A stretch of DNA of 64,000 nucleotides from assembly GCA_028279595.1 (NCBI GenBank), contig JANQNK010000003.1, forward strand, positions 25,367 to 89,366, in the 5' to 3' direction. Shown here one piece after another: positions 3,362 through 53,195 of the stretch. Made by a program: the position numbers and the translations under genes. The number at the start of each line of letters is the position of its first letter. The stretch's first letter is position 1. The notes beneath the pieces are model-generated. The model saw nothing but the letters and a program-made list of their open reading frames with translations, was not told the DNA's origin and did no database searches. This DNA comes from Thermoplasmatota archaeon. Lineage in GTDB: Archaea > Thermoplasmatota > JAKEGO01.

Positions 3362-5094
<1,733 letters not shown>

Positions 5095-5511
5095 ATGAAG
5101 CTGGACGGCGACGACCTCCGAGCGATGGCCCTTTTCGAGAGCATCACCGGAGCCAGGGTGATCGACTTCATGCCCACCGAGGAGTCCTTCCATTTCCTCA
5201 TAGACGCCGACGGAGCCGGTAAAGCCATCGGCAAGGGCGCCGAGAACCTGAAACGCTTCAGGGAACTGACCGGCAGGAGGGTGAACGTCTACGTCCACTA
5301 CAAGGACGAGAGGAAGTTCGTCAAGGCACTCTTCCGGCGGTTCGAGGTCGAGAGCATCGAGTTCACCGAGGACGAGAACGGCCGCGTTGCCGTCGTGAAG
5401 GTCGCGCCGAAGGACAAGGCACGTGCGATCGGTCGCAAGGGCCGGAACATCTCCATCATCGCCGAGATGGCCAAGAAGCACTCCGAGCTCGACAGCGTCC
5501 GGATAGCCTGA
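5095..5511 (+). CDS. nusA: Archaeal NusA-like transcription termination/antitermination protein (two KH domains)
   Basis: 138 aa. KH motifs (IGKGAENLKRFRELTGRRV and IGRKGRNISIIAEMAKKH) are present. It sits directly after L30e, as in archaeal rpo operons. Confidence 0.85.
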   Translation: MKLDGDDLRAMALFESITGARVIDFMPTEESFHFLIDADGAGKAIGKGAENLKRFRELTGRRVNVYVHYKDERKFVKALFRRFEVESIEFTEDENGRVAVVKVAPKDKARAIGRKGRNISIIAEMAKKHSELDSVRIA

Positions 5512-5682: not shown

Positions 5683-7667
5683 TGGCCAGGCGACGCAAGA
5701 TAACCAGTGACGGCAGCGGTGTATCGAAGAAGGCCAAATCGGAGCCGAAGGCACCGAAGGGAAAACCTAGGACACCTGTAAGGAACATCCCGTGGGGCGC
5801 AATAGCCTTCGCGGTCATCATAGCACTCGTGGTCGCCCTCTTCGTCGCGATGCGTCCCGTCGACGACAGCGACGATGATGACGAGCCAATTGTCCCGACC
5901 GAGCTCGTCCGTTCATACGAGGCTTCCATTTCCACGGATTCCGTGTTCCTCCTGACTGACAGGAACGATACGATCCAGATCGTCGTGAACAACACTGGTG
6001 AACTGGATGACGATTACAACATCACGGTCGACCATTCGGACCAACTGGACATTCACGTATCGGACAGCCTCTCCCTCGACCCCGGAGAGAACGAGACATT
6101 GAACCTCACCGTCGAATCCATCGGCACCTTCGGCCTGTACGAGGTCTACATCAACGTTACCGTGGTCATTCCGGTCGATGAGGCGAACACTACGGCGGAG
6201 AACACCGTCATCGTCAACCGGACCACGCAGGTCCAGCTCGAGTTCTCCGTATACGTCTCCCAGTTCAACCTGGACATCCGCGTCCTCGACGACGCGGAGA
6301 CCGCGGCCCCGGGCGAGTCGGTCATCTTCGTCATCGAGATCGAGAACAACGGCACCCTCGACACTAACGTCGACCTCACCATATCGAAGCTGAACGTGGA
6401 CAACGGCGGAAAGGAAAAATGGACCGGAGCCGCCCAGCTCGATGCGCATCAGCTGGCGATGTTCGAGAACGACATCACCCATGTGCGCATGAACGTCACC
6501 GTTCCACAGAATGCGAACCCGGACGGCGAGGTTGCCCATTTCACGATAACCGCGGAATCGGTGGATGCCATTGCAGCCGGAGTTCCTCTTGCTGTATCGA
6601 CCCAGGTGCATCTGACGATATCCAACATCGGATTCTACGCAACCCCCGACTCCTACGAGAAGGAGGTCCAGGAGGAGCACTGGGTGGAGTTCGATTGCGA
6701 GATACGCAACTCGGGGGGAACTGACGTCTACGTCAAGTACCGGGTGTCCGAGATACCTGCGGATTGGATGCGTGACCTAGATCCCTACCCTGAGGACGGC
6801 TGGTTCCTCGGTGACACTCCAGTCACATTCTCCATCGCTATGAGGCCCGAGAACGTCGATATCGGTGATTTCCACCGCTTCATCGTCGAGATCTACTCCG
6901 ACGACCACAACGAGACGAGCTTCTTCTCCGTCAACGTTACCATAGCCGAACCGAGGTTCGATCTGGTCGCGCAGAGCCAATATGTCCCGATAGACCTCGA
7001 ACCGTTCGAGCGAGGGATCGCGTACGAGCACGAGATAATCATATCCAACCTCGGCCTCCTCGAGTACCAGGTGAACCTGACCCTGGAGCATCCCCCCACG
7101 TGGGACATGGACATCGATCCGGGTTGGATCTGGCTCGAGCAGTATTCAGGCACAGAGTGGGAGACAGCCACCCTCCGTTTCCTGATGCCGACCAACACCT
7201 CGGCCGGTGAGCATCCGTTCCTGGTAGTCGGCGAGGCATGGGGCATCGAGGTGGAGCTGAACCTCATCGCCGTAGTGGAGGAGTACCTGAACGGGACCCT
7301 CCATCTTCCGGCTGTAGTGCCTGAGCTCAACCTCTCCCAACCGCCGATCAACGGTTCCTCCCAGGAGTCCCTCGAATTCGTCATTACCAACACCGGGAAT
7401 TCGGCGGCAACCTTCGAGATCGTCATCGAGAACTACCAGGACCTTGACCTTCCAGGATGGAAGATCAATCTCACATCGGGACAGCACGAGGGCGACGAAC
7501 GCATCGTCATAACGATCAATCCCGGGAAGAACAAATCGGTATTCCTGAATGCCAAGGTCAATGATGAGCACGAGGAGGAGGTACTGCACCCGAGCCTATC
7601 ATTCCTGGTGCACCGGGACCCCATATGGCAGATCGACCGTATGGACGCGATCGTTCAGATCCAGTAG
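5683..7667 (+). CDS. Signal-anchored extracellular glycoprotein with repeated CARDB/Ig-like beta domains
   Basis: The start is probably the internal ATG at 5683 (MARRRKI). A basic N-terminus is followed by one TM helix (GAIAFAVIIALVVALFVAM). There are more than 25 N-x-S/T sequons (NDT, NNT, NIT, NET, NLT, NVT...) and repeated beta-rich segments. There is no C-terminal anchor. Confidence 0.5.
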
Positions 7668-7983
7668 GACTGTTCAACCTGGCGACACTCCCGACGGGAC
7701 CGGGTGCTTAGGACCTCATTGATAGGTAATTCTAACACCCGGGCCAGTCGGGAGCACGGTAGCTAGAAGGAATGAAGAGGAGTGCTCCCGACGGGATTCC
7801 GGTGGACACACCGTGCCCACCTCTCCCTTAACTCTATCCAATCAGTTGAATAACGTTCAGGGATCGAACTTCGTTCGAATCCCGTATGGCCCCGACGGGA
7901 CCGGTGTATTAAGAACCCAAAGATCTGTCAGATTAATCACCGGGCCAGTCGGGAGCACATTAGCTAGAGGATAATGAAAGGAG

Positions 7984-8058
7984 TGCTCCCGACGGGATTC
8001 GAACCCGTGTCCCCAGCTCGAAAGGCTGGAATGATTGGCCGGGCTACACTACGGGAGC
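7984..8058 (-). tRNA. tRNA-Glu (anticodon TTC)
   Basis: The reverse complement folds as a cloverleaf. The acceptor stem is GCTCCCG/CGGGAGC, the anticodon stem-loop is CCAGC-CTTTCGA-GCTGG, the T-arm is ACGGG-TTCGAAT-CCCGT, and the discriminator is A. CCA is not encoded. A TATA box (TATATAAA, 8075-8082) lies upstream. Confidence 0.85.
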
Positions 8059-8158: not shown

Positions 8159-8245
8159 GTGGGGATAGCCAAGCCTGGTATGGCGATAGCCTGCTAAGCT
8201 ATTGGCGGTTACGCCTCGGGGGTTCAAATCCCCCTCCCCACGCCA
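8159..8245 (+). tRNA. tRNA-Ser (anticodon GCT)
   Basis: The acceptor stem is GTGGGGA/TCCCCAC and the D-arm is GCCA..TGGC. The anticodon stem-loop ATAGC-CTGCTAA-GCTAT gives anticodon GCT. It has a long variable arm (TGGCGGTTACGCCTC) and T-arm GGGGG-TTCAAAT-CCCCC. Discriminator G and CCA are encoded. A TTAAAT box lies ~31 nt upstream. Confidence 0.9.
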
Positions 8246-8270
8246 TTTATCAGTAATCTATTCCGAAGGC

Positions 8271-8398
8271 GTGGGGAGTTGGGTCTCGAACCCCGGAATG
8301 GGCGGGGTTGTTTCGAAATTGATAGCAGTATTCTCAAACCAATTTCGAAACCCAGGTGGCGCGTAGCGTCACCATGGCAAATCCCCCTCCCCACGCCA
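8271..8398 (+). pseudogene. tRNA-Ser-derived tRNA-like element (rearranged paralog, pseudogene or att-site remnant)
   Basis: It shares the 5' GTGGGGA and 3' CAAATCCCCCTCCCCACGCCA termini with tRNA-Ser(GCT). It keeps a GATAGC anticodon-stem remnant and a variable-arm-like hairpin, but no canonical D or T arm can be formed. It contains a perfect 12-bp inverted repeat (8310-8321 / 8340-8351). Confidence 0.4.
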
Positions 8399-8451
8399 TT
8401 TATAATAATATTCAGAAAACGGTTAAGTAAACTCCTGTATCTACCGAAGCG

Positions 8452-9471
8452 ATGGACCTTGTGTTCCTTTCGGTATCGGTCGGTTTCCTTGCGTTCCTTC
8501 TCTACCTCTCGGCATGGTTCGCGGGGTCCGAGACGGCATTGACCCATCTCACGGTCGGACAGGTCGCAGAGATGAAGAGGGACCGGGTCAAAGGCTACAG
8601 GTACATCGAATGGCTGAAGCTCGAGATGGACAGGAGCATCATCGCTATCCTGATCGGTAACAACATCGTGAACATTCTGATGTCTGTGGTGGCTGCCCTG
8701 ATCGCTGACTCACTGTTCTCCACTGTCGGCGTAACCATAGCGGTCGGCGTCATAACTTTCCTCATCATCGTCGTCGCGGACATCACACCGAAGTCGATAG
8801 CGATACTGGACACTGACAGGATAGTCCGGAGGAATGCACGGAGCATCTACTTCATGGTGAGAGCGTTGGGGCCTTTGGTGACCGTCTTCTCGCGATTGTC
8901 GATGGGGCTCATCCGGCTTCGCGGGCACAAACCTCGCAGGAAGAACCTCGTCGTCTCCGAGGAGAGGATAATGGCCCTAGCCACCCTGAGCGAGGAGGAG
9001 GGCGTCATCAAGGAGATCGAGAGGGAGATAATCCACAAGGTGTTCAAGTTCGGGGACAAGCGCGTCGCGGAGGTCATGGTACCGATCTCCGACGTCTTCA
9101 GCATCCCGTCCGGAACATCGCTCGAGGATTCTGCGATCAAGGTCTCGGAGAGCGGCTTCACCCGGGTTCCGGTGGTCAAGGACGGCCGCATCGAGGGGAT
9201 CCTCTACGGAAAGGACCTCCTTGTGGCGGATAGCCAAACCGCCGACGACCTCGCAAGGGAGCCGATGACCGTCGGTGCTGCCGACGAGATAACCGATGTC
9301 TTCGACAGGATGAGATCGAGTCACGTGCACCTGGCCGTCGTGATCGGCAAGGCCGGTGCACAGGTGGGGATAATCACCATGGAGGACATCATCGAGGAGC
9401 TTGTCGGCGAGATCGAGGACGAGTTCTCCGAAGTTCAGAGCGGGAAGACCCCTGCACGAACCGGACAATAA
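8452..9471 (+). CDS. CNNM/CorC/HlyC-family transporter (DUF21 membrane domain plus CBS pair)
   Basis: 339 aa. Four N-terminal TM helices are followed by a tandem CBS region (VAEVMVPISDVFSIP...VHLAVVIGKAGAQVGIITMEDIIEEL). This is the typical CorC/HlyC architecture. Confidence 0.8.
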   Translation: MDLVFLSVSVGFLAFLLYLSAWFAGSETALTHLTVGQVAEMKRDRVKGYRYIEWLKLEMDRSIIAILIGNNIVNILMSVVAALIADSLFSTVGVTIAVGVITFLIIVVADITPKSIAILDTDRIVRRNARSIYFMVRALGPLVTVFSRLSMGLIRLRGHKPRRKNLVVSEERIMALATLSEEEGVIKEIEREIIHKVFKFGDKRVAEVMVPISDVFSIPSGTSLEDSAIKVSESGFTRVPVVKDGRIEGILYGKDLLVADSQTADDLAREPMTVGAADEITDVFDRMRSSHVHLAVVIGKAGAQVGIITMEDIIEELVGEIEDEFSEVQSGKTPARTGQ

Positions 9472-10732: not shown

Positions 10733-10828
10733 GCCGGCGGCGAATGGAATAACACAACGCCTCCCTACGCCTACTCTACAATGCCAGTTATCTTAACGAA
10801 TGTGATGACTTGCTCAGACCTTAACATA

Positions 10829-11383
10829 TCATTTTGTAACAGCGTCCCACAGGACGTCGAAACTATCTTCCAATTCCTTTTCATTGATCTTCTTTCGTTT
10901 AGAAAATTCCATTATGAAGACCTGATGCAGTGTAAACAGAATATTACCGAACATTTCATACGAATATTCTTTCAGGGTACCCTTCTTCATTTCCTCTTCA
11001 TATGCAACCCGATATTTCTTCAGCATTGCTGCAGATGCCAATTGGCTCTCCTTTGAGATGTATTTGGAATTCAGAAAGAGGGTAAAGAAGAGGTTGTAAT
11101 CCATATTCTTCAAGGACCACTTGGTATATCCTATCCAGAATTTCTTCAGTTTCAATTCAAAATCATCTTCTTCAACGTAATATGAGTTCATATCTTCGAG
11201 CATATCATTTTTAATGTGCATATACGCTGCATTCATCAGGGCTTCCTTTGTCTTATAATGGTAGAATAGCGTTCCTGAGGCTACGCCCGATTCTCTGGTG
11301 ATTTGAGCTGTGGGGGTGTTCTCGAATCCTTGTTCGACGAATAGTCTGATCGCGGTTTCCAGGATTTTCTGTTTATTATTCAT
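10829..11383 (-). CDS. TetR/AcrR-family transcriptional regulator
   Basis: 184 aa. It has an N-terminal HTH (ILETAIRLFVEQGFENTPTAQITRESGVASGTLFYHYKTKEAL). The gene is AT-rich (~38% GC) and lies 36 bp downstream of the hydrolase gene, so it is probably in the same operon. Confidence 0.85.
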   Translation of the reverse strand: MNNKQKILETAIRLFVEQGFENTPTAQITRESGVASGTLFYHYKTKEALMNAAYMHIKNDMLEDMNSYYVEEDDFELKLKKFWIGYTKWSLKNMDYNLFFTLFLNSKYISKESQLASAAMLKKYRVAYEEEMKKGTLKEYSYEMFGNILFTLHQVFIMEFSKRKKINEKELEDSFDVLWDAVTK

Positions 11384-11419
11384 TCAAGCACTTCAACGAT
11401 TATCATTGATGTATTCCGT

Positions 11420-12316
11420 TTACTTCATATACTTATCGAACCAGCCAAGAATGGGTTTTGGATTGGTACCAATCCAGTCGTAAGCAGCCATTCGGTTGAA
11501 GTTGGCATTCTTCAACTTGGGAATCTCTATCCAGAGCATTTTCTTCTCTACCTTCAGGTCATTGTAATATGTGTTAACAAATTTCTCATCAAGGTAGCCA
11601 TCGTTCTTGTTCTGAATTACTAATGTTGGAATATTGATCGTCTTCACATTATGCATAAATGTATTTGTCGAGTAATCGATCCCTGTTCGGTTTTTGATCT
11701 TTTTATTAACACTTTTAATAAATAATTTAGGCAATGCCCCAGCTTGAATGAACGTCTGATAATCCAGGGGTTGGACAGATACCATGGCTTTCAGATTCTT
11801 GTACTCCCTCAAGCCATCTTCATCCCCGAAAGCATTGGTGGATGCAGCCTGTCCCATACAGATGCTAAATAACCCGATCTTGGCATTTTCATATTCCTTA
11901 TGGTTCGATATGAATTTTACAGCGGCGATGATATCTTTCCTTTCTTCAAGACCCCAGGTGACCCAGGGAATGGTCCCCAAACCACTATTCCCGTGTGCTC
12001 TGAAATCATACATTAGAACGGAATATCCAGAATCATTGAGGTATTTCGCCTGTCTTAGGAAATGTACATCCTTGTGGTATCCTTTAACCATTCCCTTTCC
12101 CTCAAGCGTATAACCTGATCTGCTGCATTGAATCCCGAAATGAGATTGTATTATTACTTTATCCTTGGCGCCTTTGATCAACCATCCTGAAAGTTTTACG
12201 CCATCCGAAGTATCAAATTTGACGTTCTCATAATCAAGACCATACTCCTTTGGATCATCGAACACTTGACCCTGATAAGGTTTAATCATCGCATCTGTCA
12301 GTAAATTCGCAATCAT
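11420..12316 (-). CDS. Alpha/beta-hydrolase-fold protein (dienelactone-hydrolase/BAAT-like)
   Basis: 298 aa. The motif YDFRAHGNSG with a following nucleophile elbow (CMGQAAS) resembles an alpha/beta hydrolase. The gene is AT-rich and sits in the island. Confidence 0.55.
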   Translation of the reverse strand: MIANLLTDAMIKPYQGQVFDDPKEYGLDYENVKFDTSDGVKLSGWLIKGAKDKVIIQSHFGIQCSRSGYTLEGKGMVKGYHKDVHFLRQAKYLNDSGYSVLMYDFRAHGNSGLGTIPWVTWGLEERKDIIAAVKFISNHKEYENAKIGLFSICMGQAASTNAFGDEDGLREYKNLKAMVSVQPLDYQTFIQAGALPKLFIKSVNKKIKNRTGIDYSTNTFMHNVKTINIPTLVIQNKNDGYLDEKFVNTYYNDLKVEKKMLWIEIPKLKNANFNRMAAYDWIGTNPKPILGWFDKYMK

Positions 12317-12349
12317 TTATTCACTTCCTGGAATCACATCTACAACTTA

Positions 12350-12375
12350 ACTGAGTACTCAGTCAGTATTTAAAC
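12350..12375 (-). promoter_or_regulatory. Perfect 14-bp palindrome ACTGAGTACTCAGT next to a TATTTAAA box; putative TetR operator and promoter of the hydrolase-TetR operon
   Basis: A perfect palindrome at 12350-12363 lies between the TATA-like box (12368-12374) and the ATG at 12316. Its arms GAGT/ACTC resemble the palindromes at 15740 and 19595. Confidence 0.45.
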
Positions 12376-12506
12376 TTTATCCATAACTCCTGCACTTTCT
12401 ACGTTGAGAACTGTAGTAATTTACCTCGCACGGTATATAGTCCGATAGAACCGAGCTGAAGTCCCCACACTCTATACCAGTTTCATTGATTCATGGTGCA
12501 GTTCGA

Positions 12507-13073
12507 TCACTTCTTGATCATATCCCACAAGGTAGGGAAGAACTTCTCAATCACCTTCGGGTCCTTGAGCTTCCTTGACGATAGGTAGAGTATGGTAAAA
12601 TTGACGTGTGACATTATCGCCTCCGATAGATAATCCATCGGGAGGTCCTTGATGAGTCCCTCGTCGACAGACCTTTGATAAATGTCTCCCATAAGGTCAA
12701 ATTCCGCAGAGAATTCATCCATTGTGAGCTTGGTGATATATGGCGATGACTTATACATCGCTAGAAATTTCATCTGATTCGGATTCTTTATCCCCCAGGC
12801 GATGCCGATATCCCAGAATGTTTTCACAGCCTCCTCGTTCAACAAGGAATCCTCGGTCAATTGCGGGAAAATGCCCATGAACTCCTGCTTCGTCCCGAGG
12901 TAGAGTTCATTGATCAGTGCCTCCTTGTTCTCGAAGTAGGAGAAGAGTGTCCCAGTACCGACGCCAGCGTCCTTTGTGATACTGGTTGTGGACGTATTGT
13001 CGAATCCTCTTGTCACGAAGAGCTTCAGTGCGCTCCTCATGATGGCATCCCTCTTATTCATCTTTTCACTCAT
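12507..13073 (-). CDS. TetR/AcrR-family transcriptional regulator (paralog of 18126-18716)
   Basis: 188 aa with the HTH AIMRSALKLFVTRGFDNTSTTSITKDAGVGTGTLFSYF. It is ~70-75% identical to the ORF at 18126-18716. It lies 13 bp downstream of the RND exporter gene. Confidence 0.85.
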   Translation of the reverse strand: MSEKMNKRDAIMRSALKLFVTRGFDNTSTTSITKDAGVGTGTLFSYFENKEALINELYLGTKQEFMGIFPQLTEDSLLNEEAVKTFWDIGIAWGIKNPNQMKFLAMYKSSPYITKLTMDEFSAEFDLMGDIYQRSVDEGLIKDLPMDYLSEAIMSHVNFTILYLSSRKLKDPKVIEKFFPTLWDMIKK

Positions 13074-13086
13074 TGTACCACTTAAC

Positions 13087-15702
13087 TCACTTATTGTATT
13101 TTTTTCTATTGCCCGACCTCTGCCTTCGAGATGAGGATCGAGTCCTAGCGATTTTCTTGCGAGCTAGCGGATGGATACGACGTCCCTTCGCAGTAGTCCT
13201 AGCCCATACGACCAGTATGCTTGGCTGTATGAACACCGAGGCCAGTAACGAATAGAGGATCATAAGAGCGGTCAGAGTGCCGAACTGCTGCATCATTCCC
13301 TGCGGGGATAGCGCAAGGATGCCAAAGCCTACCATCGTGGTCACAGCTGCGCCGAAGAGTGCTGTGCCGGTGTGGCTAACTGTAGTGATCACAGCCTTCT
13401 CTATTCTACCATGGTCCTCGAGCTCTTCCGTGAATCGGTGGGTAACATGAATTGCATAGGTCACTCCGAGACCGATGCTGAGTGATCCGATGAGAAGCGT
13501 CATTACATTCAGAGATATGTCGAGGAGGAACATGGTGCCATGGATCCATATGAGTACTAAAATGACCGGGAGTGTGGTGATGATCCCCAAGCTCTTCGAT
13601 TTTACCGAGTTCCAGAATACCAGGGAAAGTACTACAGAGGAAACGACCACAGTGATAATGATCGATGTCAGCATAGAATCATTGATCGCTCCGAGAACGA
13701 GGTTCATTATCACTGGTTCTCCAGTAAGTATCACCCTGTTCACGGTACTCTTCGACTCGAGTCTCTCCAAGGGCGCGGCGTCATCTTCAATGTACGAGAT
13801 TATTTCATCGGTCTTGGAATGTCCCTGTGAGTCTACCCTGATCCGGATCAAGGCGACAGTATATTTTCCGCTATCTTCATCGAAGTACAGGACATTGTCG
13901 AGTTCTCCTGGGTGGTTCTCTGTGATGTACTCGAATAGAACGCTAACATTCGAATCCGGAACATTGTCATCATCAAGATCCTCTGCTCGATACATGGCCT
14001 CGAAATCGGGATCGTAGAGGTCCCCATCGGATACGGTGGACACGTTGGCGAGGTCTCTCATGACCGTAAGCGGGGATTCCACACCATTCCCACCTTGAAA
14101 GAGTATTATCTCTCTATCATCGTTCTCGATGTTCGTATGTGTGGCATCCATGGCCTCGAGCACCTCCGTGGTTGCTACGTTTTCACCTTCGACATAGATG
14201 ATCACGGATTCCTCGGAGAAGTCGAACTCGGTCTGCATGTACTCGAACTCGTCTCTGACCTCGCTACCCTCAGGCAATCCTGCCTCGACGAAATTGAATG
14301 TTGTGGATACCATAGTTGCCAATACCAGCAATATCAGGGTTATTGCAGTCGCTGCCGTCAGTGTCCATTTGGGATGGGATCCCGCAATCTTCCCCCCAAA
14401 ACCCATTGCTTTCGTAAATCCAACCGAGATCGGATTTCTGGTACCGATACCGGAAGCCCTGTCCTTGTTAGACGGTGAGAGGAGATCTTTCCCCTTCTTA
14501 ACTCTGTATGTGTCAATAAGAACCCTACAGGCTGGAACGAAGGTGACGAACACGATATAGGCCGCTAGGATACCTACTGCGACCGTGATCCCGAACTCGC
14601 GGATTGGACCTATATCGGATGTTCCGTTCGATAGGAAACCGATCATACTGGTGAAGGCAGCGAGGAGGAGGGCTGCTCCGGCGGAGACAATGGAGATATC
14701 CGCAGCCTTTCTCACTGTATCACCTTGGGCGATCCGTTCCCTGTATCTCATAGTAAGATGTATGCTGTAGTCCACCCCAAGTCCGATCAGCAAGATGGGG
14801 ACTATGGTGGCAGCCTCGGATGTGTAACCCATGTATATCATGAAGCCTTGGATCCATATCAGAGAGAAAACCAGAGCGAGCAGGCCTATCATCAGATCGC
14901 TTATCGTGCGGAACGTGATCCATAGAACGACGATGATCATTCCAAATGCAATGGGGAACAAGGTGTTCATGGTATAATCCCAACCCTCTTCCATCGTATC
15001 GTTGATCTTCGTGTTCGTGAGCGCGAATGGCCGAACGGAGGAATATTTCCTCTCGGAGACCACCTTGTCAATTCTCCGCTCGATGCGCTCGATCCTATCA
15101 TCTCGATCTTCAGATGTCTCACCAGGCAATATTGTCTTATCAACAGTGACCATCATGAGTGCAGAACGATATTGGCCACCATTTTCTGAGGATGTCAGAA
15201 TATGAATTAATGCTCCAAGGTCAGGGATCTCCAGAGAATCGTTGAATACGCTCCTCAATTCGCTGTTGGTCATATTTCCGTATGATGAGACCAGTGATGA
15301 ATGGTTCCCAGCTTCAGGAAACGCTAGAGGTGCGAGGAGTCGGGGAAGGCTGATGATCCCATCCTGGGAAAGGTTTCCAGATATGACGTCATCCTCTCTC
15401 AATGAAGATTCTAGCTCGAGCATACCGATGAAACAATCAGTCGAAATGATGTCCAGATCCTTATCGGGGGAATTCTCGTGAACCAATACAATGACGTTGT
15501 GGCTCTGGCTGAATTTCTCATCGATATCATCCCTCGCGTCAACCGCCTCATCCCCAGGTATCCATGCATCTTCACCCTGCAAGTCGGCGGCGGGAACGGT
15601 CAAGATGATACCCATCATTATCATCGTGACCAGTACTACGGCCCCGATCGTCAATTCTGGTCTTCCTGTGACCATCTTGCTGACGTTTTTCAATATCTTC
15701 AT
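13087..15702 (-). CDS. RND-superfamily exporter (MMPL domain, COG1033-like)
   Basis: 871 aa. It has two 6-TM bundles, each preceded by a large extracytoplasmic loop, and the typical MMPL/SSD region ...GIGVDYSIHLTMRYRE... and ...GLGVTYAIHVTHRF.... The gene is AT-rich. Confidence 0.85.
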   Translation of the reverse strand: MKILKNVSKMVTGRPELTIGAVVLVTMIMMGIILTVPAADLQGEDAWIPGDEAVDARDDIDEKFSQSHNVIVLVHENSPDKDLDIISTDCFIGMLELESSLREDDVISGNLSQDGIISLPRLLAPLAFPEAGNHSSLVSSYGNMTNSELRSVFNDSLEIPDLGALIHILTSSENGGQYRSALMMVTVDKTILPGETSEDRDDRIERIERRIDKVVSERKYSSVRPFALTNTKINDTMEEGWDYTMNTLFPIAFGMIIVVLWITFRTISDLMIGLLALVFSLIWIQGFMIYMGYTSEAATIVPILLIGLGVDYSIHLTMRYRERIAQGDTVRKAADISIVSAGAALLLAAFTSMIGFLSNGTSDIGPIREFGITVAVGILAAYIVFVTFVPACRVLIDTYRVKKGKDLLSPSNKDRASGIGTRNPISVGFTKAMGFGGKIAGSHPKWTLTAATAITLILLVLATMVSTTFNFVEAGLPEGSEVRDEFEYMQTEFDFSEESVIIYVEGENVATTEVLEAMDATHTNIENDDREIILFQGGNGVESPLTVMRDLANVSTVSDGDLYDPDFEAMYRAEDLDDDNVPDSNVSVLFEYITENHPGELDNVLYFDEDSGKYTVALIRIRVDSQGHSKTDEIISYIEDDAAPLERLESKSTVNRVILTGEPVIMNLVLGAINDSMLTSIIITVVVSSVVLSLVFWNSVKSKSLGIITTLPVILVLIWIHGTMFLLDISLNVMTLLIGSLSIGLGVTYAIHVTHRFTEELEDHGRIEKAVITTVSHTGTALFGAAVTTMVGFGILALSPQGMMQQFGTLTALMILYSLLASVFIQPSILVVWARTTAKGRRIHPLARKKIARTRSSSRRQRSGNRKKYNK

Positions 15703-15735
15703 TCAGATCACCACGGTGACTGTTATTCATATCCA

Positions 15736-15806
15736 TTTCGAGTGACTAATCACTCAATAACATTGGGAGTATATATAATTATTGATTGAGCAGTCACTCA
15801 ATAATT
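15736..15806 (-). promoter_or_regulatory. Conserved operator/promoter element, copy 1: palindrome GAGTGA-CTAA-TCACTC (15740-15755), TATA box (15768-15782) and palindrome ATTGAG-CAGTCA-CTCAAT (15785-15802)
   Basis: It lies 40-100 bp upstream of the RND exporter start. It is ~80% identical over ~75 bp to the element at 19591-19660. Confidence 0.5.
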
Positions 15807-15868
15807 CGGGTCGTATCAAATCTGATGAATGATCTCAGCGATGTCCATTCGATCCAACGGGTCTTGCT

Positions 15869-16861
15869 CTATGGGACGTTGAGCCTTTCCAATCCGACTA
15901 TACCATAACTGGAATCGACCAGTTTGTTTGCCTTTTCAATATCCCGGGCATTTGGATTGGGGGATTCCATCGGCCAACCGCCTTTCTTACATTGCTTGTC
16001 CCTGTAGAGCACACTCTGTTGGCTGAAATAGGCTCCCGAATGCCTCGGTGCGTCATCAGAGAGCAGACAGTGAAGTGACGTCTGAGCGGACTCCTCGTTG
16101 CTGTTGGTCCAGAAGGGATAGATCGGTGCCATCAGCACCCTCATGATCGTCATCAACAGACCTTTGCCACCGAAGTTCGACCTCGCCCAACCCGGATGTA
16201 CGGAAGCCGTTGTTACACCGGTACCCTCGAGCCGATTGGCAAGTTCTAAAGCGTATAATACATTCGCGACCTTTGCCTCTCCATAAGCCGCGAAGTTTTT
16301 GAATTTCCTTGATTGATAGTTCAGGTCTTCAAGGTGGACATCATGCCTGTTCTTTGGGCTGCCTGCATGAACGACGGACGAAAGAATTACTATCCTCGAA
16401 GGAGCGCTCTTCTTCAATACATCAAGCAGCAGTTCCGTCAACAGGAAATGGCCGAAATAGCTGACCCCTATGGTCATCTCTAGGTCATCCTTCGTACGCT
16501 GGATCTCCCGACCCATCGTCACAAGCCCTGCATTGCATGCTAGACCGTCCAGTCTGTCATATTTCTTCAAGAATTCAGCGACGAAATCCCTCACCGATTG
16601 GAGGTCGGCAAGATCTATCCTCATCACATCATAACTCCCTTTCAGTCCCTTGAAGCTCTTGGCCACCTCCTCTCCCGCTTCCGTTCTCCTACATGCCATG
16701 ACCACATGTCCACCCTGCTTCACAAGCTGTCTTGTCGTCTCAAGACCTACTCCCGAATTGGCCCCGGTTACGATGTACACCTTTCCGCTCATATCTTTAG
16801 CGAGGGTCTTCTCATCGACCCATATGACATCCTTTCTACCCATTCTCATCACCACTTTCAT
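15869..16861 (-). CDS. Short-chain dehydrogenase/reductase (SDR; retinol-DH/WWOX-like)
   Basis: The TGANSGVG cofactor motif and the catalytic YxxxK region (YGEAKVANVLYALE) are present. The N-terminus overlaps the upstream LtrA stop, so the true start may be at an internal Met (16849/16843). Confidence 0.8.
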   Translation of the reverse strand: MKVVMRMGRKDVIWVDEKTLAKDMSGKVYIVTGANSGVGLETTRQLVKQGGHVVMACRRTEAGEEVAKSFKGLKGSYDVMRIDLADLQSVRDFVAEFLKKYDRLDGLACNAGLVTMGREIQRTKDDLEMTIGVSYFGHFLLTELLLDVLKKSAPSRIVILSSVVHAGSPKNRHDVHLEDLNYQSRKFKNFAAYGEAKVANVLYALELANRLEGTGVTTASVHPGWARSNFGGKGLLMTIMRVLMAPIYPFWTNSNEESAQTSLHCLLSDDAPRHSGAYFSQQSVLYRDKQCKKGGWPMESPNPNARDIEKANKLVDSSYGIVGLERLNVP

Positions 16862-18125
16862 TTCTCCGATTGACAGTCAATTCATCCATTTCTTCTGGGA
16901 TCAGGCCTCTCATCCAAGTCATCATTGCCGCGATTATTGGTAGGAAGAGAAGTACGTTGGTGATTACGAGTATTTGGGTCGCCCCCAGGTCCAGAAGGCC
17001 GAAGGGGAGCAGCAGGATTGCCGCGATGGGTAATACCTTCCTGCCCACAGCCAACGGTCGTTCGAATTCTCTAGCTATCTGCAGGGTCTTGACCAAAAGA
17101 GCGATCGATACAAGAACAATGGAAAGGGATACGATTATCGACCAACGCACCCCATCGGGAAGATGGTCTCCCTCGTGTTCTATCATGTAAAGGATCGAGG
17201 CTCCGATGACGGTTATCCCTGCGGTCATTGGGAGATGGAGGTAGAACCATCTCATCGTGTTTGACATCCCCGGGCGGGGCAGTCGACTAGAGACCGTGTC
17301 GAAGTATGTCCACCAGATACCGACCGCCAAAAGGGTACCAAGCATCACCTTGGTGCCGAGCTCCCACGTGATATCATGGTGATCTGCAGCTCCGCTGACA
17401 ACGCTGAACACTATCTCTCCGAGGACGATGATGGTTAGGAGACCAAACCTTTCACTCAGTGAAGGGCTGACACTTGAACCGATCTCGAGCTGTTTCCGGG
17501 CTTCAGGATTCCTCCGACCGATCGCAATGAGCATGGTCGGAAGTATGAGGGAAAGGACGAAAGCGAGAGCCCAGAGATAGAACCGGGCCGGTGGTGCAAT
17601 GAAGATCGAACCCGCGAACAGGACGGTATTGAGTAGGAATACCGCTGAATACGGACCCGACAATGGACGGTGATCCGGGTCATGTACTCCCGTCCTCCAC
17701 CAGAGGAACGTCAGGATGAGCTGGAAACCGGCGTAGGAAAGGGCGAATCCCCGCGACGTATCACCCATGGCATCGTGCGCGAAGATCGCCATCATCACGA
17801 CAGTTGCCATCTGGAGGAAGGTGAAGACCCTCGTCCGGATGTCGTCGTTACCATGTACATCGTGGTACAGGGATCCGTTCAACCACGCCCACCAGACTAA
17901 GACGAACAGGAAGGAGAACTCACCGATGCCTACCCAGGTTATGTGGTGAACCAGCGCATGGGAGAGTTGAGCGATGAGTGCCACGTAGACGAGGTCGTAG
18001 AACAGTTCGAGGAACGTCACTGTTCGATGCTCGGGACGATCCCCTGCCCTTCTTGGTGGTTGCCACCAATGATGTAAGGTCCTAGGACGGGTCCTCATAC
18101 GCCGATGTCCCCCCTGTCGATCCAT
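16836..18125 (-). CDS. Low-temperature-requirement A (LtrA)-family integral membrane protein
   Basis: 429 aa and polytopic. The N-terminal motif VTFLELFYDLVYVALIAQLSH...WWAWLNGSLYHDVHG is characteristic of bacterial LtrA (PF06772). Confidence 0.65.
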   Translation of the reverse strand: MDRQGGHRRMRTRPRTLHHWWQPPRRAGDRPEHRTVTFLELFYDLVYVALIAQLSHALVHHITWVGIGEFSFLFVLVWWAWLNGSLYHDVHGNDDIRTRVFTFLQMATVVMMAIFAHDAMGDTSRGFALSYAGFQLILTFLWWRTGVHDPDHRPLSGPYSAVFLLNTVLFAGSIFIAPPARFYLWALAFVLSLILPTMLIAIGRRNPEARKQLEIGSSVSPSLSERFGLLTIIVLGEIVFSVVSGAADHHDITWELGTKVMLGTLLAVGIWWTYFDTVSSRLPRPGMSNTMRWFYLHLPMTAGITVIGASILYMIEHEGDHLPDGVRWSIIVSLSIVLVSIALLVKTLQIAREFERPLAVGRKVLPIAAILLLPFGLLDLGATQILVITNVLLFLPIIAAMMTWMRGLIPEEMDELTVNRRNESGDENG

Positions 18126-18716
18126 TCACTTCCGGATCATATCCCATCCGGTCGGAAAGAGATCCTCTATGACCTTCGGGTCCTTGATCTTCCTGGATGT
18201 GAGATAGAGTATCGTGGCATACATGTGAGAGGTCGTTGCCTCCATCAGGTAGTCGATGGGCAGGTCCTTTATCAGACCCTCCTCGATCGATCTTTGATAC
18301 AGGTCTCCCAGTAACTCCATTTCATCGGCGATCTCGGATTGCGTGAGCTTGGTGATGTAAGGTGAGGACTTGTACATCACGATGAACTTCATCTTGTCAG
18401 GATTCCTGATCCCCCAGTTGATGCCCAGGTCCCAGAACGTTCTGACGACCTCCTCGGTCAGTAGGGTATCGTCCGACAACGGCGGGAAGATTCCCATGAA
18501 CTCCTTCTTGGTCTCAAGATAGAGCTCGTTGATGAGCGCTTCCTTGCTGTCGAAGTAGTTGAACAGCGTCCCTGTCCCCACCCCGGCATTCTTGCTTATG
18601 TTGGCCGTGGACGTGTTGTCGAAGCCCTTGGTCGTGAAGAGCTTCAATGCGCTCCTCATGATCGCTTCCCTTTTGTCCTTTGGCTTACTCATCGCTACCG
18701 TATCCTCCTGAACCAT
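18126..18716 (-). CDS. TetR/AcrR-family transcriptional regulator (paralog of 12507-13073)
   Basis: 196 aa with the HTH EAIMRSALKLFTTKGFDNTSTANISKNAGVGTGTLFNYF. Its stop abuts the LtrA start. Confidence 0.85.
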   Translation of the reverse strand: MVQEDTVAMSKPKDKREAIMRSALKLFTTKGFDNTSTANISKNAGVGTGTLFNYFDSKEALINELYLETKKEFMGIFPPLSDDTLLTEEVVRTFWDLGINWGIRNPDKMKFIVMYKSSPYITKLTQSEIADEMELLGDLYQRSIEEGLIKDLPIDYLMEATTSHMYATILYLTSRKIKDPKVIEDLFPTGWDMIRK

Positions 18717-18750
18717 TTATTACTTGCTCCATACTCGAACATCCTGAGCT

Positions 18751-19575
18751 TCACCTGAAGGCCCGCCGGATCATCCGGTCGTATCCTCGGTCGCCAAAGA
18801 GCCTTCTCATCCAGATCATCGTCCTTGCCATCTGGCCCTTGACATATCTGGTCTTTGGTTTCCTCACGGTCGCAGCCTTAGCGATCGTCTCTCCAAGAAC
18901 CTCCGGATCGGTACCCATCGTTTGCATCCTCGGGCTGTCCATTAACTTGAGGTATGGATCAATCTGACCTTTGTATGCATTTCCATTATCGTACTTTTTC
19001 AACTGTTCTCCGACGACAGCACCAAAGTTCGTCCTTATCGCTCCCGGCTCGATGACCACTACGTCGATACCGAACTCCTTGACCTCGATCCGCAGGCAGT
19101 CAGAGAATCCCTCGATCGCGTGCTTGGTGGCATGGTACCACGCGCCAAGCGGCGTATAGATCTTGCCTCCCATCGAGGATATATTCACTATCCTTCCGGA
19201 CTTCTGCCTCCTCATGTGGGGAAGCACCATCTGGGTCAGCTCGACGAGGCCGAAGTAGTTCACATCGAACTGGTATCTACCATCCTCCATGGGAACGAGT
19301 TCCACGGGACCGTAGAGGCCGAAGCCGGCGTTGTTTATCAGTATGTCGATTCGACGGTCCTTTTCAAGGATCATATCCACCGCTCGCCTGTTGTCTTCGG
19401 TCTTTGAAACGTCCATGCCTATTGGTACGATCCCGAATCTCTTCAGGTCCTCCATCTTGTCGACGCTTCTCGCTCCTGCGTAAACCTTGTGTCCCTGTTT
19501 CGCGAGGATTTTGGCAGCTTCCTTCCCCATTCCGGAGGAGGCTCCCGTAATCAACACAATCTTCTTTTCCATCAT
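18751..19575 (-). CDS. SDR-family oxidoreductase (classical)
   Basis: 274 aa with TGASSGMG, NNAG and YHATKHA (YxxxK) motifs. Confidence 0.85.
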   Translation of the reverse strand: MMEKKIVLITGASSGMGKEAAKILAKQGHKVYAGARSVDKMEDLKRFGIVPIGMDVSKTEDNRRAVDMILEKDRRIDILINNAGFGLYGPVELVPMEDGRYQFDVNYFGLVELTQMVLPHMRRQKSGRIVNISSMGGKIYTPLGAWYHATKHAIEGFSDCLRIEVKEFGIDVVVIEPGAIRTNFGAVVGEQLKKYDNGNAYKGQIDPYLKLMDSPRMQTMGTDPEVLGETIAKAATVRKPKTRYVKGQMARTMIWMRRLFGDRGYDRMIRRAFR

Positions 19576-19590
19576 TTCCTCAACCTCCTT

Positions 19591-19660
19591 ATTGATTGAC
19601 TAATCAGTCATGTATGGGCTAGTATATATAGTTATTGATTGAATAGTCAGTCAACAATTT
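19591..19660 (-). promoter_or_regulatory. Conserved operator/promoter element, copy 2 (TGATTGACTAATCAGTCA palindrome, AGTATATATAG TATA box, ATTGATTGAATAGTCAGTCAACAAT)
   Basis: It lies 20-85 bp upstream of the SDR gene start (19575). It is ~80% identical to copy 1. Confidence 0.5.
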
Positions 19661-19726
19661 GTATAGGTACTGGCTCCCTATCAACCATAGAAAAATACTT
19701 GTAAATTGTCCTGAAATTCGCTTCAC

Positions 19727-21235
19727 TCAAGTATGTCGCCGCTTTCTCCGGTCGACTGCGATGAAGAGTGTTATGATCGCCAAGGCCACCGGCAGGATAG
19801 GCAGTTCAGGAACCTTCTGAGGTGCGCTGTTCTCGGTGTAGTTAATCAATGGATATCGATCCTCCGCACCTGCACTTCCATCGATAGAATATTCGGTCTC
19901 TCCGATGCCATCTCCGTTGCTGTCCGTTCCGTTATAATCTGACCAGTAGTTACCGTGGGTCCCGTTGTCCCAGGTGTTCTTACTGTTGTTGTCGTACCCT
20001 TGCGAGGTGCTCTCACCATTGCTGAGGAAGTTGTTGTGATGGATGACATTATCATAGCTGTCGGCGATGACGCAACCGTAGTCGGTATTGTTGAAGATCT
20101 CATTGTAAGAGACGGTGTTGTTGTTCGAGAAATCATCCAGATCGATCCCATGGATACCGTTCGAATTAACTGTATTGTTACCAATGTCGTTCCTGTAAGA
20201 TGAATCAGAATAGATCCCAGTTTCGTTGTTTGAGCTCACGATGTTATGTAGAAAAATATTGTTCCCGCCCTGATTGATATGGATGCCGTCACCGCTGTTC
20301 ATGCACACAGTGTTGTTCGAGACGTTGTTTCTGAATGCTTCGTAGAAGTATATCCCATACTCACCGTTGGAAATCGCGTTGTTATTACTTATTGAGTTGG
20401 GACCAAAAATGTATCTTAAGTATATTCCATATCGACCGTTCGAGGTCAAATCGTTATCTTTGATGATATTATTGTCACTTGATCTGCTGTAATTCGTTTT
20501 CACACTAAAAGTAGAAATGAGCTTGATACCCAGGTCAGAATTCGCACTTGCATTATTGTCCTTTATTGTGTTGTATGTCGAGGCATCGAGGTATATACCA
20601 AAATAATTTGAACTGACACTATTGTTCTCGATCACAGTGGTGTTGCTGTCGCGTTTAAGATAGATTCCAACATTATTGTGGGTAACGACATTGTTGGAAA
20701 TCGAATTGTTGTTCGAGCCCTTTTGGAAGATACCCGAATCAGTGTTCGAACCGATCAGATTGTACTCAACGGTATTGAAATTGCTCGAGGAGTTCAGGAA
20801 GATGCCATCTCCGCCGTTCCAGCTGATGTTACAATTGACGATCGTGCAGTTCTCTACAGAGGTTAGTAGGATGCCAGAATCAAGGTAGGCTGATCCTGAT
20901 CCAGTAATTTGAAGATGAGATAAATTGACATTATCCGCAGTTATGTTGAGCGTGATCCCACTACCAGTCGCATTTACTATGGTGTTCGAGGAACCATTCC
21001 CGATCAGTGAAAGACTCTTGTTCACAAGAACGTTCTCGAGATACGTCCCATTGAACACGTAGATCGTGTCCCCGTCCGATGATGCGTTAATAGCGTCCTG
21101 TATCGAAGAATGATCGGCCCAACCACCATCATCATCGACGGTAAAGGTCTCTGCTTTGATAGTTGGAAGCGCTTGAAGTGCTATCACGAGGACCATCATC
21201 GTGATCAGCAACCTGGCAATGAATTCCGTCGCCAT
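19727..21235 (-). CDS. Secreted right-handed beta-helix (NosD/PbH1 repeat) protein with a C-terminal TM and basic anchor
   Basis: 502 aa. There is an N-terminal signal peptide. The module TFTVDDDGGWADHSSIQDAINASSDGDTIYVFNGTYLENV is homologous to the N-terminus of the 2028-aa ORF. It has many N-x-S/T sequons and parallel beta-helix repeats. The C-terminus is PILPVALAIITLFIAVDRRKRRHT. The gene is AT-rich. Confidence 0.7.
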   Translation of the reverse strand: MATEFIARLLITMMVLVIALQALPTIKAETFTVDDDGGWADHSSIQDAINASSDGDTIYVFNGTYLENVLVNKSLSLIGNGSSNTIVNATGSGITLNITADNVNLSHLQITGSGSAYLDSGILLTSVENCTIVNCNISWNGGDGIFLNSSSNFNTVEYNLIGSNTDSGIFQKGSNNNSISNNVVTHNNVGIYLKRDSNTTVIENNSVSSNYFGIYLDASTYNTIKDNNASANSDLGIKLISTFSVKTNYSRSSDNNIIKDNDLTSNGRYGIYLRYIFGPNSISNNNAISNGEYGIYFYEAFRNNVSNNTVCMNSGDGIHINQGGNNIFLHNIVSSNNETGIYSDSSYRNDIGNNTVNSNGIHGIDLDDFSNNNTVSYNEIFNNTDYGCVIADSYDNVIHHNNFLSNGESTSQGYDNNSKNTWDNGTHGNYWSDYNGTDSNGDGIGETEYSIDGSAGAEDRYPLINYTENSAPQKVPELPILPVALAIITLFIAVDRRKRRHT

Positions 21236-21405
21236 ATGAATCCCGAACCTGGGTATGGATTTCGCTTAGTTAACAATGTCCATTTGGCCATTGAACCAGT
21301 CAATTTCACAAATAGCTGTATAATTATCTAAACATGGTTATATGACGGAAATCCGGTGATAACCCCACCAAGCATTATAAACGTCAACGAACGATATCGG
21401 AGACT

Positions 21406-48453: not shown

Positions 48454-49398
48454 TCACTCCTTCAGGAACTCCATGATCTGCCGTCTGATGAGGTGGTAGG
48501 CGACGATGTTCCCGTACTCCTTCGAGAGCTCGTGTCCGCGCTTCATCAGGCTCTCGTGGAACCCGGAAGGCAGGAAGATGGGCCCGTGCTCGAGCTCCAG
48601 TCCGCCGAAGCCCGCTTCTATGACAATGCGTATGAGCTGGAGGATGGAGTCCTCGCCGTACCCCTTCGGGATCACGGTGATCTCGATGGAATCGTCCCCG
48701 TACTCGAGGGTGTGGATGACGTGCTCCCTGAGCAGGTGACGCTTCGGGAGTCTCGGCAGCAGTATCTCGATCGGCTTCGATCCAGCCTCGTCGACCAGCA
48801 CCTCGCGCTTTCCCCTCTTCATGTGCCAGAGCCTCACCTTGGCCTTCCTGTCCCTGTCCACCCTTATGGTGCTGTTCTCGGTGAGGTGACGGCCGGTGAC
48901 TATCCACCGTTCGTCGATGAGTATCTCTATCGGTATGGGTGAGGGCAACGGGTATACGCCTCCCGACCTCGCGGCCTCGACGACGTCCTGCGGTTTCAGG
49001 ACTATGCCGCTGTACTTACGCAGTGATACAGCGTCCTCGGAGACTGTGTGCGCGTACTCCTCGAGCTGATGCTGGACCCATGCTATGACCGGTGCGGATA
49101 TCCTCTCGGCTCCGGCTCGTTTCATTATCCGCCGGACGGGGGATCGGAAAAGGACGTCCTGCTCGGACCACTCGAACGACCTCGCCTTCGGCTTCAACCG
49201 GAGGGTGGCCTCCTCTACGTCCTTGGGTTTGATGATCTTCCGTCTGTCCTCGTGACAGATGCGCACTGCCTCCTCTCCGATGCGCAGAGCGTACTCCTCC
49301 AGGGCGCTCCTCATGTAGAGCGTCCCGGTCAACCTGACCCGGTCTGCCCCTCCCTGCTTCAGGAGTCGTCTGACCGGTGCTACGAAGAGTTCTGGCAT
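48454..49398 (-). CDS. Tandem histone-fold (doublet) protein fused to a ~180-aa C-terminal domain of unknown function
   Basis: Two HMf-like folds are present: ELFVAPVRRLLKQGGADRV...AVRICHEDRRKIIKPKDVEEA and VLFRSPVRRIMKRAGAERI...AVSLRKYSGIVLKPQDVVEAA. For comparison, HMfB has LPIAPIGRIIKDAGAERV...RKTIKAEDIELA. Confidence 0.7.
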   Translation of the reverse strand: MPELFVAPVRRLLKQGGADRVRLTGTLYMRSALEEYALRIGEEAVRICHEDRRKIIKPKDVEEATLRLKPKARSFEWSEQDVLFRSPVRRIMKRAGAERISAPVIAWVQHQLEEYAHTVSEDAVSLRKYSGIVLKPQDVVEAARSGGVYPLPSPIPIEILIDERWIVTGRHLTENSTIRVDRDRKAKVRLWHMKRGKREVLVDEAGSKPIEILLPRLPKRHLLREHVIHTLEYGDDSIEITVIPKGYGEDSILQLIRIVIEAGFGGLELEHGPIFLPSGFHESLMKRGHELSKEYGNIVAYHLIRRQIMEFLKE

Positions 49399-49444
49399 CA
49401 CTACCGAACCCCTTATTATTGGTAGGGTAGTTAACGATTATGGT

Positions 49445-53092: not shown

Positions 53093-53195
53093 AAATGAAG
53101 GGCTCGCGGGGACCGGACGCTTAAGAATGAATTGACCTGTTGGTATAACGTCCGGGCCTAGCGAGCCCGCGTTACCGAGAAGATAATGTGAGGAG

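Follow-up and report, generated by a model that had tools for sequence, protein, structure and literature searches.

The window analyzed here is a 64-kb stretch of the genome of a Thermoplasmatota archaeon (contig JANQNK010000003.1), and all coordinates are window positions unless they are given with a locus of another Thermoplasmatota genome (L082, L083, L092, L093, L096, L097 or L099). It contains a tRNA-Ser(GCT) gene followed by a non-coding, tRNA-ended element, which is the subject of this work together with equivalent structures located behind the two other tRNA genes of the window. tRNAs were called with ARAGORN and Rfam RF00005, and RNA families were searched with Rfam 15. Over the whole window only three tRNAs exceeded the Rfam gathering threshold, and the sub-threshold matches were restricted to miRNA-precursor-like noise caused by long hairpins. 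The intact tRNA-Ser(GCT), at 8159-8245 on the forward strand, was recognized by both programs (60.9 bits with Rfam; 3' bound 8245/8242). Its CCA is genome-encoded, at 8243-8245. Such an encoded CCA occurs only at this gene, none being present in tRNA-Glu (7980-7983), in tRNA-Arg (53192-53195) or in the tRNA-Ser of a relative (L092, 10602-10604). An RNA polymerase / L30e / NusA gene block lies upstream in the window, and a CorC gene follows the element. Proteins encoded nearby have homologues whose source records assign them to Thermoplasmatota or Thermoplasmata.

A 26-nt segment, CAAATCCCCCTCCCCACGCCATTTAT, occurs exactly twice in the 64 kb, at 8225-8250 and 8378-8403 on the forward strand. 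No further copy appears even at three mismatches, and none is expected by chance (100 shuffles). The first copy, hereafter the core, runs from T-loop C56 through the tRNA 3' end and CCA to TTTAT, thus ending 5 nt past CCA and 8 nt beyond the discriminator. Both copies include the CCA. The period of the repeat (8225 to 8378) is 153 bp, and the 127 bp between the copies are non-coding. All remaining parts of the element are on the forward strand as well. A spacer at 8251-8267, which together with ATTTAT amounts to 23 nt between paired arms, separates the tRNA end from an inverted copy of it, the anti-core GGCGTGGGGAG (8268-8278), identified from inverted repeats and from the fold. The anti-core is the reverse complement of CTCCCCACGCC and covers, as complement, the last T-stem base, the acceptor 3' strand, the discriminator and CC. 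It can pair either with 8387-8397 in the second copy of the repeat, as an 11-bp closing stem, or with the tRNA's own 3' end at 8234-8244. The element had been described as opening with GTGGGGA and closing with acceptor, G and CCA; GTGGGGA is indeed found at 8271-8277, and the end reads TCCCCAC-G-CCA.

The interior consists of three hairpins. An inverted T-arm-like stretch at 8279-8309 ends in hairpin 1 (AACCCCG-GAATGGG-CGGGGTT, 8289-8309), visible in the fold, the 3' strand of which (CGGGGTT) resembles the 5' strand of a tRNA T-stem plus T54 and T55; the GAACCCCG and GGGT blocks of this stretch are conserved (alignments A1/A3). The repeat start (T-loop C56) and the 5' half of the element form an imperfect inverted copy of the tRNA T-arm and acceptor 3' strand. 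Hairpin A (8310-8351) has an 18-nt loop and a perfect 12-bp stem, formed by the inverted repeat GTTTCGAAATTG/CAATTTCGAAAC at 8310-8321 and 8340-8351. Hairpin B (8352-8377), supported by the fold and by covariation, has an 8-bp stem, three outer pairs and a GCGTAGC cap (8361-8367). Read on the tRNA-sense strand, this cap fits GCGNAGC, which PMC13037366 presents as an extraordinarily stable DNA mini-hairpin motif. The 131-nt segment 8268-8398 thus folds into an 11-bp stem closing three hairpins, with an energy of -70.3 kcal/mol as RNA (z -7.46). The opposite strand gave -69.5 kcal/mol (z -6.96), DNA parameters gave z -7.61, and none of 200 shuffles folded as well. The tRNA gene, the direct repeat, the perfect hairpin and the tRNA-like ends announced by the original prediction were all recovered, and the observation is real and far beyond chance.

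The tRNA-like ends raise the question of whether the element is itself a functional tRNA carrying unusual introns, or a permuted or split one. Archaeal introns occur at T-loop positions, and 68 nt of the element do interrupt a T-loop-like context (CGGGGTT / 68 nt / CAAATCCCCC). However, Rfam gave no match on 8268-8398, whether at the gathering threshold or at E<=10 for RF00005, and ARAGORN found no tRNA there, including with its intron search (-i) at default settings. Every single segment was also deleted in turn (7,381 single deletions per strand) and each product re-run in ARAGORN: no tRNA was restored on either strand, as against 275 for a positive control in which the 68-nt interior was placed in the T-loop of tRNA-Ser. 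Bulge-helix-bulge (BHB)-like candidates were as frequent as in shuffles (6 vs 5.2 +/- 2.8), and none was located at 8309/8310 or 8377/8378. BHB introns restoring a normal tRNA would have made the element an ordinary intron-containing tRNA; none was found, and the original prediction is left standing on this point. Moreover, removing the insert leaves only ~26 nt between acceptor stem and T-stem, too few for D and anticodon arms. A tRNA with a single intron is already refuted, and the whole group of intron-bearing, permuted or split tRNAs is hardly tenable. When its thresholds were lowered, ARAGORN called intron-containing tRNAs in the repeats behind tRNA-Glu and across 8254-8483; these calls were spurious and were disregarded.

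The same layout is found behind all three tRNAs of the window (Ser, Glu and Arg), a point that the original prediction did not include: tRNA 3' end, ~24-nt spacer, inverted 3' end, conserved interior and 3' end copy. The Ser element thus belongs to a family, to all appearance not described before, of short repeat units that have strong folds and are found immediately behind the tRNA genes of this lineage. These units measure 75-200 nt, are non-coding, and always have the orientation of their tRNA. On the minus strand, tRNA-Glu(TTC) (7983-8058; ARAGORN, Rfam) is followed by a 24-nt spacer (7959-7982) and by a short hairpin unit, E1 (7885-7959), the outer stem of which copies the Glu acceptor and T-stem. 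Next, on the same strand, come a degenerate stretch (7800-7884), a second copy of the tRNA-Glu 3' end (AATCCCGTCGGGAGCAC) with its spacer (7759-7799; direct repeats D1, of 201 nt, and the D2 family), and a second short hairpin unit, E2 (7684-7758). Within the degenerate stretch are the palindrome GGGATTCGAAC-GAA-GTTCGATCCC and, in inverted orientation, a copy of 13 nt from the Glu T-loop and T-stem. Behind tRNA-Arg(CCG) (53195-53269, minus strand; ARAGORN, Rfam), a 25-nt spacer, CTCCTCACATTATCTTCTCGGTAAC, leads to a 75-nt hairpin unit at 53097-53171 on the same strand. Its 5' strand reads GC-GGGCTCG-C and its 3' strand carries an exact 13-nt copy of the tRNA-Arg 3' end (53100-53112). The short hairpins behind Glu and Arg have GGCCCGG-N35-CCGGTCCC in common, and the Ser element is the long form of these units.

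Two covariance models were built, R1 from the short hairpin units and R2 from the long-type interior, and both were run over the 64 kb with filters off. R1 matched only three copies, all next to tRNAs: E1 (80.9 bits), E2 (85.7 bits) and the Arg unit (89.6 bits). Significant matches of either model were confined to tRNA neighborhoods. R2 also gave a weak match at 7791-7889 (8.8 bits, E 0.82), so that the degenerate stretch behind E1 can be regarded as a counterpart of the long-type interior; the positionally equivalent stretch of L092 scores 114 bits. Covariation was assessed on a gap-free alignment of nine short hairpins from four loci. Pairing amounts to 93.5%, and 10 of the 17 pairs show compensatory changes, a result reached by none of 500 shuffles; slid controls gave only 30-48%. 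A bulged T and a C/T 1x1 mismatch are constant at fixed places.

Trailers behind different tRNAs also look alike (window 7982-7959 and 53194-53172; L096, L097, L099): they start with the same CTCC(T) and have a pyrimidine-rich pattern in common, CTCCTnnCATTATCnTCTnGnTAAnG in Arg and Glu. Because of this likeness, the spacer either belongs to the unit that is repeated or serves as a trailer signal throughout the lineage. A scan for bacterial-type terminators found none.

Units of both types were recovered in other Thermoplasmatota. L092 and L093 are from a relative with an orthologous tRNA-Glu/tRNA-Ser pair, in which the neighboring surface protein is 67% identical to that of the window. Between the two Glu hairpins of L092 lies GGACTCGGGT / GTTCGGAAAC...GTTTCCGAAC CCGGATGACGCGAAGCGTCATCAAGG / TCGAATCCCGATGGGAGCAC, that is, the 3' part of a tRNA-Glu whose T-loop is interrupted by an insert homologous to window 8310-8377. 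In L096, an insert of the 8310-8377 type precedes an Arg-like 3' end and is followed by a spacer and an array of three short hairpins. R2 scores on the three long-type loci were 100-114 bits (114 for tRNA-Glu of L092/L093, 100 for the Arg-like core of L096). The three inserts (window, L092, L096) align, and their hairpins A and B are 100% paired with five compensatory pairs, three in hairpin A and two in hairpin B. At the apex of hairpin B, it is in every case the tRNA-sense strand that reads GCGNAGC, as GCGTAGC for the window and as GCGAAGC for both L092 and L096. Loop types are shared in the same manner: that of the window's Arg unit recurs in L096 and L097, and that of E2 in L096. Interiors are thus common to different tRNAs and genomes, and outer stems are tRNA-specific.

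These homologies bear on the view of the Ser element as a pseudogene, a decayed tRNA-Ser paralogue retaining only its ends. The GTGGGGA at the 5' side and 21 nt at the 3' side are indeed common to the element and tRNA-Ser, hairpin B bears a vague likeness to a variable arm, and the loop of hairpin A repeats GATAGC (by eye). However, the interior has its homologues in units whose flanking tRNA ends are Glu and Arg-like, and not in tRNA-Ser. The exact repeat also runs 5 nt past CCA into non-tRNA sequence, and decay would not produce perfect 11- and 12-bp stems. On these sequence grounds, the disrupted paralogue proposed earlier seems very improbable and close to refuted.

In L099 (GCA_017973855.1), a distant Thermoplasmatota metagenome-assembled genome (MAG), the minus strand of 4790-5095 carries tRNA-Lys(CTT) followed by three near-identical tandem units of ~117 nt each. 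These start with CTCCTTTTTGATAA, contain the hairpin GGAATTTG-TTTTA-CAAATTCC and end in the tRNA 3' end CCTCGAGCCCG. The phenomenon therefore reaches a distant member of the phylum. A metagenome scan with the hairpin pattern returned one true locus (L096) and one chance match (L095) from a collection evidently lacking the Joint Genome Institute (JGI) samples of close relatives, and a contig scan with the CorC protein returned only bacterial homologues, at <=37% identity.

Occupancy varies at tRNA-Ser. Comparison with relatives' loci, as had been suggested, showed that in L092 the Ser element is absent and that tRNA-Ser is followed by a different unit of ~98 nt, ending in a partial copy of the tRNA end. 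L082 and L083 represent strains or sister samples of that relative, whose CorC is 92% identical to that of the window. There, CorC is preceded by the 98-nt unit type with AAATCCCCCTCCCCACG, a tRNA-Ser 3' fragment located just upstream of CorC in both; tRNA-Ser itself was absent within 6 kb upstream of CorC in L082 and from the 3.2 kb of L083. Units bound a 4.5-kb block in L082, as 209-nt repeats (1136-1344 and 5690-5898) that are 91% identical, and this block is missing from the window. Judged from L092 and L083, units also bound a block of ~6.3 kb between tRNA-Ser and CorC, likewise missing from the window. A peptidase gene of 99% identity is common to L092 and L083, which part beyond it at a palindromic C-run. 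Between near relatives, one unit type or gene block thus takes the place of another, and the tRNA-Ser site is polymorphic for presence or absence of the element; no clean empty site was seen there.

Several features were noted around these sites. In the 98-nt unit (L082 1136-1344 and 5690-5898; L083 1560-1830; L092 10600-10700), AAATCCCCCTCCCCACG lies in the loop of a 22-bp inverted repeat, ACATAGTAAATATACCGGTAAA / TTTACCGGTGAATTTACTATGT. L092 (~17568), L083 (~1596) and L082 (~1127) diverge exactly at the C-run/G-run palindrome CCCCCCCCTTCAAGGGGGG. Past this point, the L092 sequence is that of the L082 flank in reverse complement, which suggests either an inverted segment or a break in the assembly, located at a site of recombination. 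In L082 1-1100, a truncated, putatively IS1182/IS5-like transposase N-terminal fragment is found beside a short open reading frame (ORF) with an IS1634-like N-terminal motif, and 899-956 is a perfect 29-nt tandem duplication. Fragment, short ORF and duplication all adjoin the repeat with the tRNA-Ser fragment.

In the explanation that we favor, to which we give a probability of about 0.45, the 153-bp period was left by a non-coding mini-insertion into the 3' end of tRNA-Ser, produced by site-specific recombination in the T-loop or 3' end. The original prediction listed the remnant of a small integrated element flanked by attL/attR-like repeats among its options. This part is strengthened by a repeat that starts in the T-loop and runs past the tRNA end, by occupancy that differs between close relatives, and by similar units behind other tRNAs. 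The word remnant fits less well, since the element has the look of an entire small unit that recurs; no integrase was detected among the scanned ORFs. We infer a small circular element, double- or single-stranded, consisting of core, ~24-nt spacer, anti-core and conserved interior. Crossover between this circle and the tRNA gene, by a site-specific recombinase acting in trans, would take place in the T-loop when the unit is long and at the border of T-loop and T-stem when it is short. The product would begin with the 5' part of the tRNA, continue with the core, spacer, anti-core and interior of the element, and end with the displaced core of the chromosome and the old flank. The tRNA would stay intact, its old 3' end becoming the 3' strand of a hairpin; the second copy of the 26-nt repeat (8378-8403) would thus be the displaced original end of tRNA-Ser. 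The corresponding empty-site junction would be tRNA-Ser ...CACGCCATTTAT/AATAATATTC, and that of the circle ...CACCATGG/CAAATCCCCC...CCATTTAT/CAGTAATC, head to tail. Arrays such as the three hairpins of L096 and the three 117-nt units behind tRNA-Lys in L099 would result from repeated events or unequal crossing-over, and larger gene blocks would stand between sites of the same kind.

Several observations agree with such insertions. Williams reportedly placed the recombination of tRNA-integrating elements at a T-loop sublocation (2002), and a repeat starting in the T-loop and ending past the discriminator fits this crossover place. In all seven informative units, the anti-core is complementary at 10-11 of 11 positions to the end of the upstream tRNA, including the discriminator and the next base, and at only 8-10 of 11 to the 3' strand of its own hairpin. 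This better match to the upstream tRNA is predicted by insertion because core and anti-core would arrive together. L097, the orthologous tRNA-Arg locus of a relative (flanking GTPase 83% identical), provides a particular case. The 3' strand of its hairpin keeps TCCCCGCGAGCCC, the state of the window's tRNA-Arg, and its tRNA and anti-core have CCCGGCGAGCCC and GGGCTCGCC, respectively. The anti-core thus matches the new T-stem and the 3' strand the old one, as expected if core, spacer, anti-core and interior arrive together. The same tRNA-Arg(CCG) (L097 275-349, minus strand) has the T-loop TCCGAAT, with C at the near-universal U55, and a changed T-stem, which might have arisen when its 3' part was replaced.

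Other results weigh against insertion. Pfam scanning of 47 of the 50 long ORFs of the window, the other three being RNA polymerase subunits (by homology with L092) and a 1761-aa ORF at 58514-63799, revealed no integrase, transposase, HUH (rolling-circle) nuclease or Cas1. IMG/VR, INPHARED and PLSDB, which hold few Thermoplasmatota elements, gave no true match that would point to a free element, be it virus or plasmid. IMG/VR queries consisted of the core, the loop and hairpin B as well as the 98-nt unit of the relative, and yielded only chance 17-mers (L090 and L091); BLAST against phages and plasmids (INPHARED, PLSDB) matched only the tRNA-Glu body. No empty site was seen for Arg or Glu, and a double-stranded circle of 97-153 bp is physically awkward. 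Furthermore, the window and L092 keep the same two-unit order behind tRNA-Glu, and at pairs 7:66 and 49:65 the bases proper to each lineage are present in both strands of both Glu hairpins and in the additional 3' copy. Such lineage-specific bases in all Glu copies mean that gene conversion or parallel insertion is needed, and a selected structure would fit equally well. Finally, stem covariation (10 of 17 pairs) and highly conserved loops are not needed by a pure scar.

These last points lead to the possibility that the units are functional structured RNAs in tRNA sense, either released from read-through transcripts by RNase P and tRNase Z or acting as trailers (terminator, insulator or hairpin sequestering the 3' end). 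The Ser element would then be a cloverleaf-shaped member of ~130 nt. The very strong folds (z -7.5) would be expected of such RNAs, as would the compensatory changes in the short hairpins and in hairpins A and B, the constant tRNA orientation, and loop sequences conserved between genomes. In addition, G-U pairs number 18 in the sense strand vs 9 in the opposite one, and two degenerate copies fold 4-6 kcal/mol better in sense. However, the element is absent at the orthologous tRNA-Ser of the close relative, which also counts against the processed small RNA suggested earlier; copy number varies, and some copies have decayed. The stretch between tRNA and unit is pyrimidine- and T-rich, so that most tRNA transcripts may end before the unit, and by eye no archaeal promoter-like TATA stands at the right distance. 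Nor would a structured RNA account for an anti-core whose complementarity is higher to the tRNA end upstream than to its partner in the hairpin, or for a base after the hairpin 3' strand that differs from the tRNA discriminator. The GCGNAGC cap is a DNA-hairpin motif, and no Rfam family matches. We consider structured RNAs an unlikely explanation, although they are the main alternative to insertion.

Template switching can make and repair quasi-palindromes without selection, and the units might accordingly have arisen with no mobile element at all: by tandem duplication of tRNA 3' ends, fold-back or template switch at the T-arm palindrome, and slippage involving short direct repeats, followed by gene conversion that preserved the likeness of the units to the tRNA. 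Near-identical tandem copies, as in L099 and in the 201-nt repeat behind tRNA-Glu, are what local duplication would yield, and all Glu copies evolve in concert with their tRNA in two lineages. Yet this leaves unexplained why shared interiors (three loop types, hairpins A and B) are found behind different tRNAs and in different genomes with tRNA-specific outer stems, as well as the constant 24-nt spacer and 35-nt interior. A purely local origin is thus distinctly unlikely.

Three other ideas were tried and rejected. The low-GC block at 10.8-21.5 kb might have been an island that entered at tRNA-Ser, but it contains neither an integrase nor another copy of the repeat. A CorC riboswitch or leader was discarded as no Rfam family matched and the sequence shared with relatives begins again, past the element, at only ~50 nt before the ATG. 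Target duplication of the casposon type or by a miniature inverted-repeat transposable element (MITE) was discarded because the duplicated length varies (13, at least 17 and 26 nt) and the insert ends lack terminal inverted repeats. The low-GC region itself (10800-21600) has 37-52% G+C vs ~60% around it and looks like acquired DNA. Its genes are almost all on the minus strand and include three TetR regulators, an MMPL transporter, two short-chain dehydrogenases, LtrA, a hydrolase and a NosD/beta-helix protein. Elsewhere in the window, a 315-aa ORF (48454-49401, minus strand) has an archaeal histone fold in its first 65 residues only, the rest being without Pfam match, and two ORFs are very large, of 2028 aa (21406-27492, plus strand) and 1761 aa (58514-63799, minus strand).

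tRNA 3' ends are classic landing sites of mobile DNA, the usual footprints being plain 3' fragments beside large integrase-encoding elements. To our knowledge, no hairpin family re-specified for each tRNA has been described so far, and full-text literature searches found no description of tRNA-matched downstream hairpin families, which is weak evidence of novelty. If they are mini-insertions, the units would define a very small mobile unit and a hot spot of gene gain at tRNA-Ser in an uncultured archaeal lineage, and would point to a trans-acting recombinase yet to be found. If they are RNAs, they would form a new tRNA-matched family. In practice, the units give rise to false tRNA-like calls and break assemblies.

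Compared with the att sites of tRNA-integrating elements (tyrosine-recombinase islands, archaeal proviruses and plasmids), the Ser locus has the same repeat from the T-loop over the 3' end, a restored tRNA, a displaced 3' fragment downstream and content that varies between relatives. tRNA fragments of the displaced-3'-end kind are known in archaeal genomes, according to PMC9897764 and PMC3293823. Unlike such att sites, it has only 127 bp of non-coding DNA between the repeats and no recombinase gene among the scanned ORFs, the unit includes an inverted complement of the tRNA end and a covarying hairpin interior, and every tRNA in view is occupied. Short, non-coding, palindromic families with shared interiors are also typical of MITEs and of non-autonomous integrative elements (cis-mobilizable elements, CIME-like, with att sites and without integrase), and by analogy with these the units presumably moved in trans. 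They differ in that models R1 and R2 found them only at tRNA 3' ends and not dispersed over the 64 kb, that the duplicated segment (13-26 nt) is tRNA-specific with no fixed length, and that the outer stem is re-specified for each tRNA. Archaeal non-canonical introns and permuted or split tRNAs also show extra sequence in a T-loop context, or a 3' piece followed by a 5' acceptor strand, but the units have neither BHB motif nor restorable tRNA.

The remaining comparison is with integron attC and CTX phage attP(+), folded single-strand sites in which imperfect hairpins imitate a duplex target. The units recall such sites in their imperfect hairpins, in a structure kept while sequence varies, in some constant unpaired bases and in arrays next to a single point of entry. 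Exchange of one strand would yield the order core, rest of circle, anti-core, loop and core. Context on folded single-strand recombination sites is given in PMC4792948. Unlike attC, the units show no R-box (GTTRRRY) by eye, no IntI in the scanned window ORFs and no link to Xer, and their target is a tRNA gene. The likeness is thus an analogy in logic, and membership is not supported. The GCGNAGC mini-hairpin at the apex of hairpin B is a motif and not a system; it hints at a single-stranded DNA form and proves nothing. Extending the analogy, we consider it possible rather than probable that the units are substrates of an undescribed, structure-recognizing recombination system entering at tRNA gene ends or, alternatively, a new class of tRNA-matched hairpin RNAs. 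Under the first of these, single-stranded DNA circles would fold to mimic the duplex tRNA 3' end, as attC and CTX attP(+) mimic their targets, one strand would be exchanged, and the same sites would bound cassettes such as those of L082 and L083.

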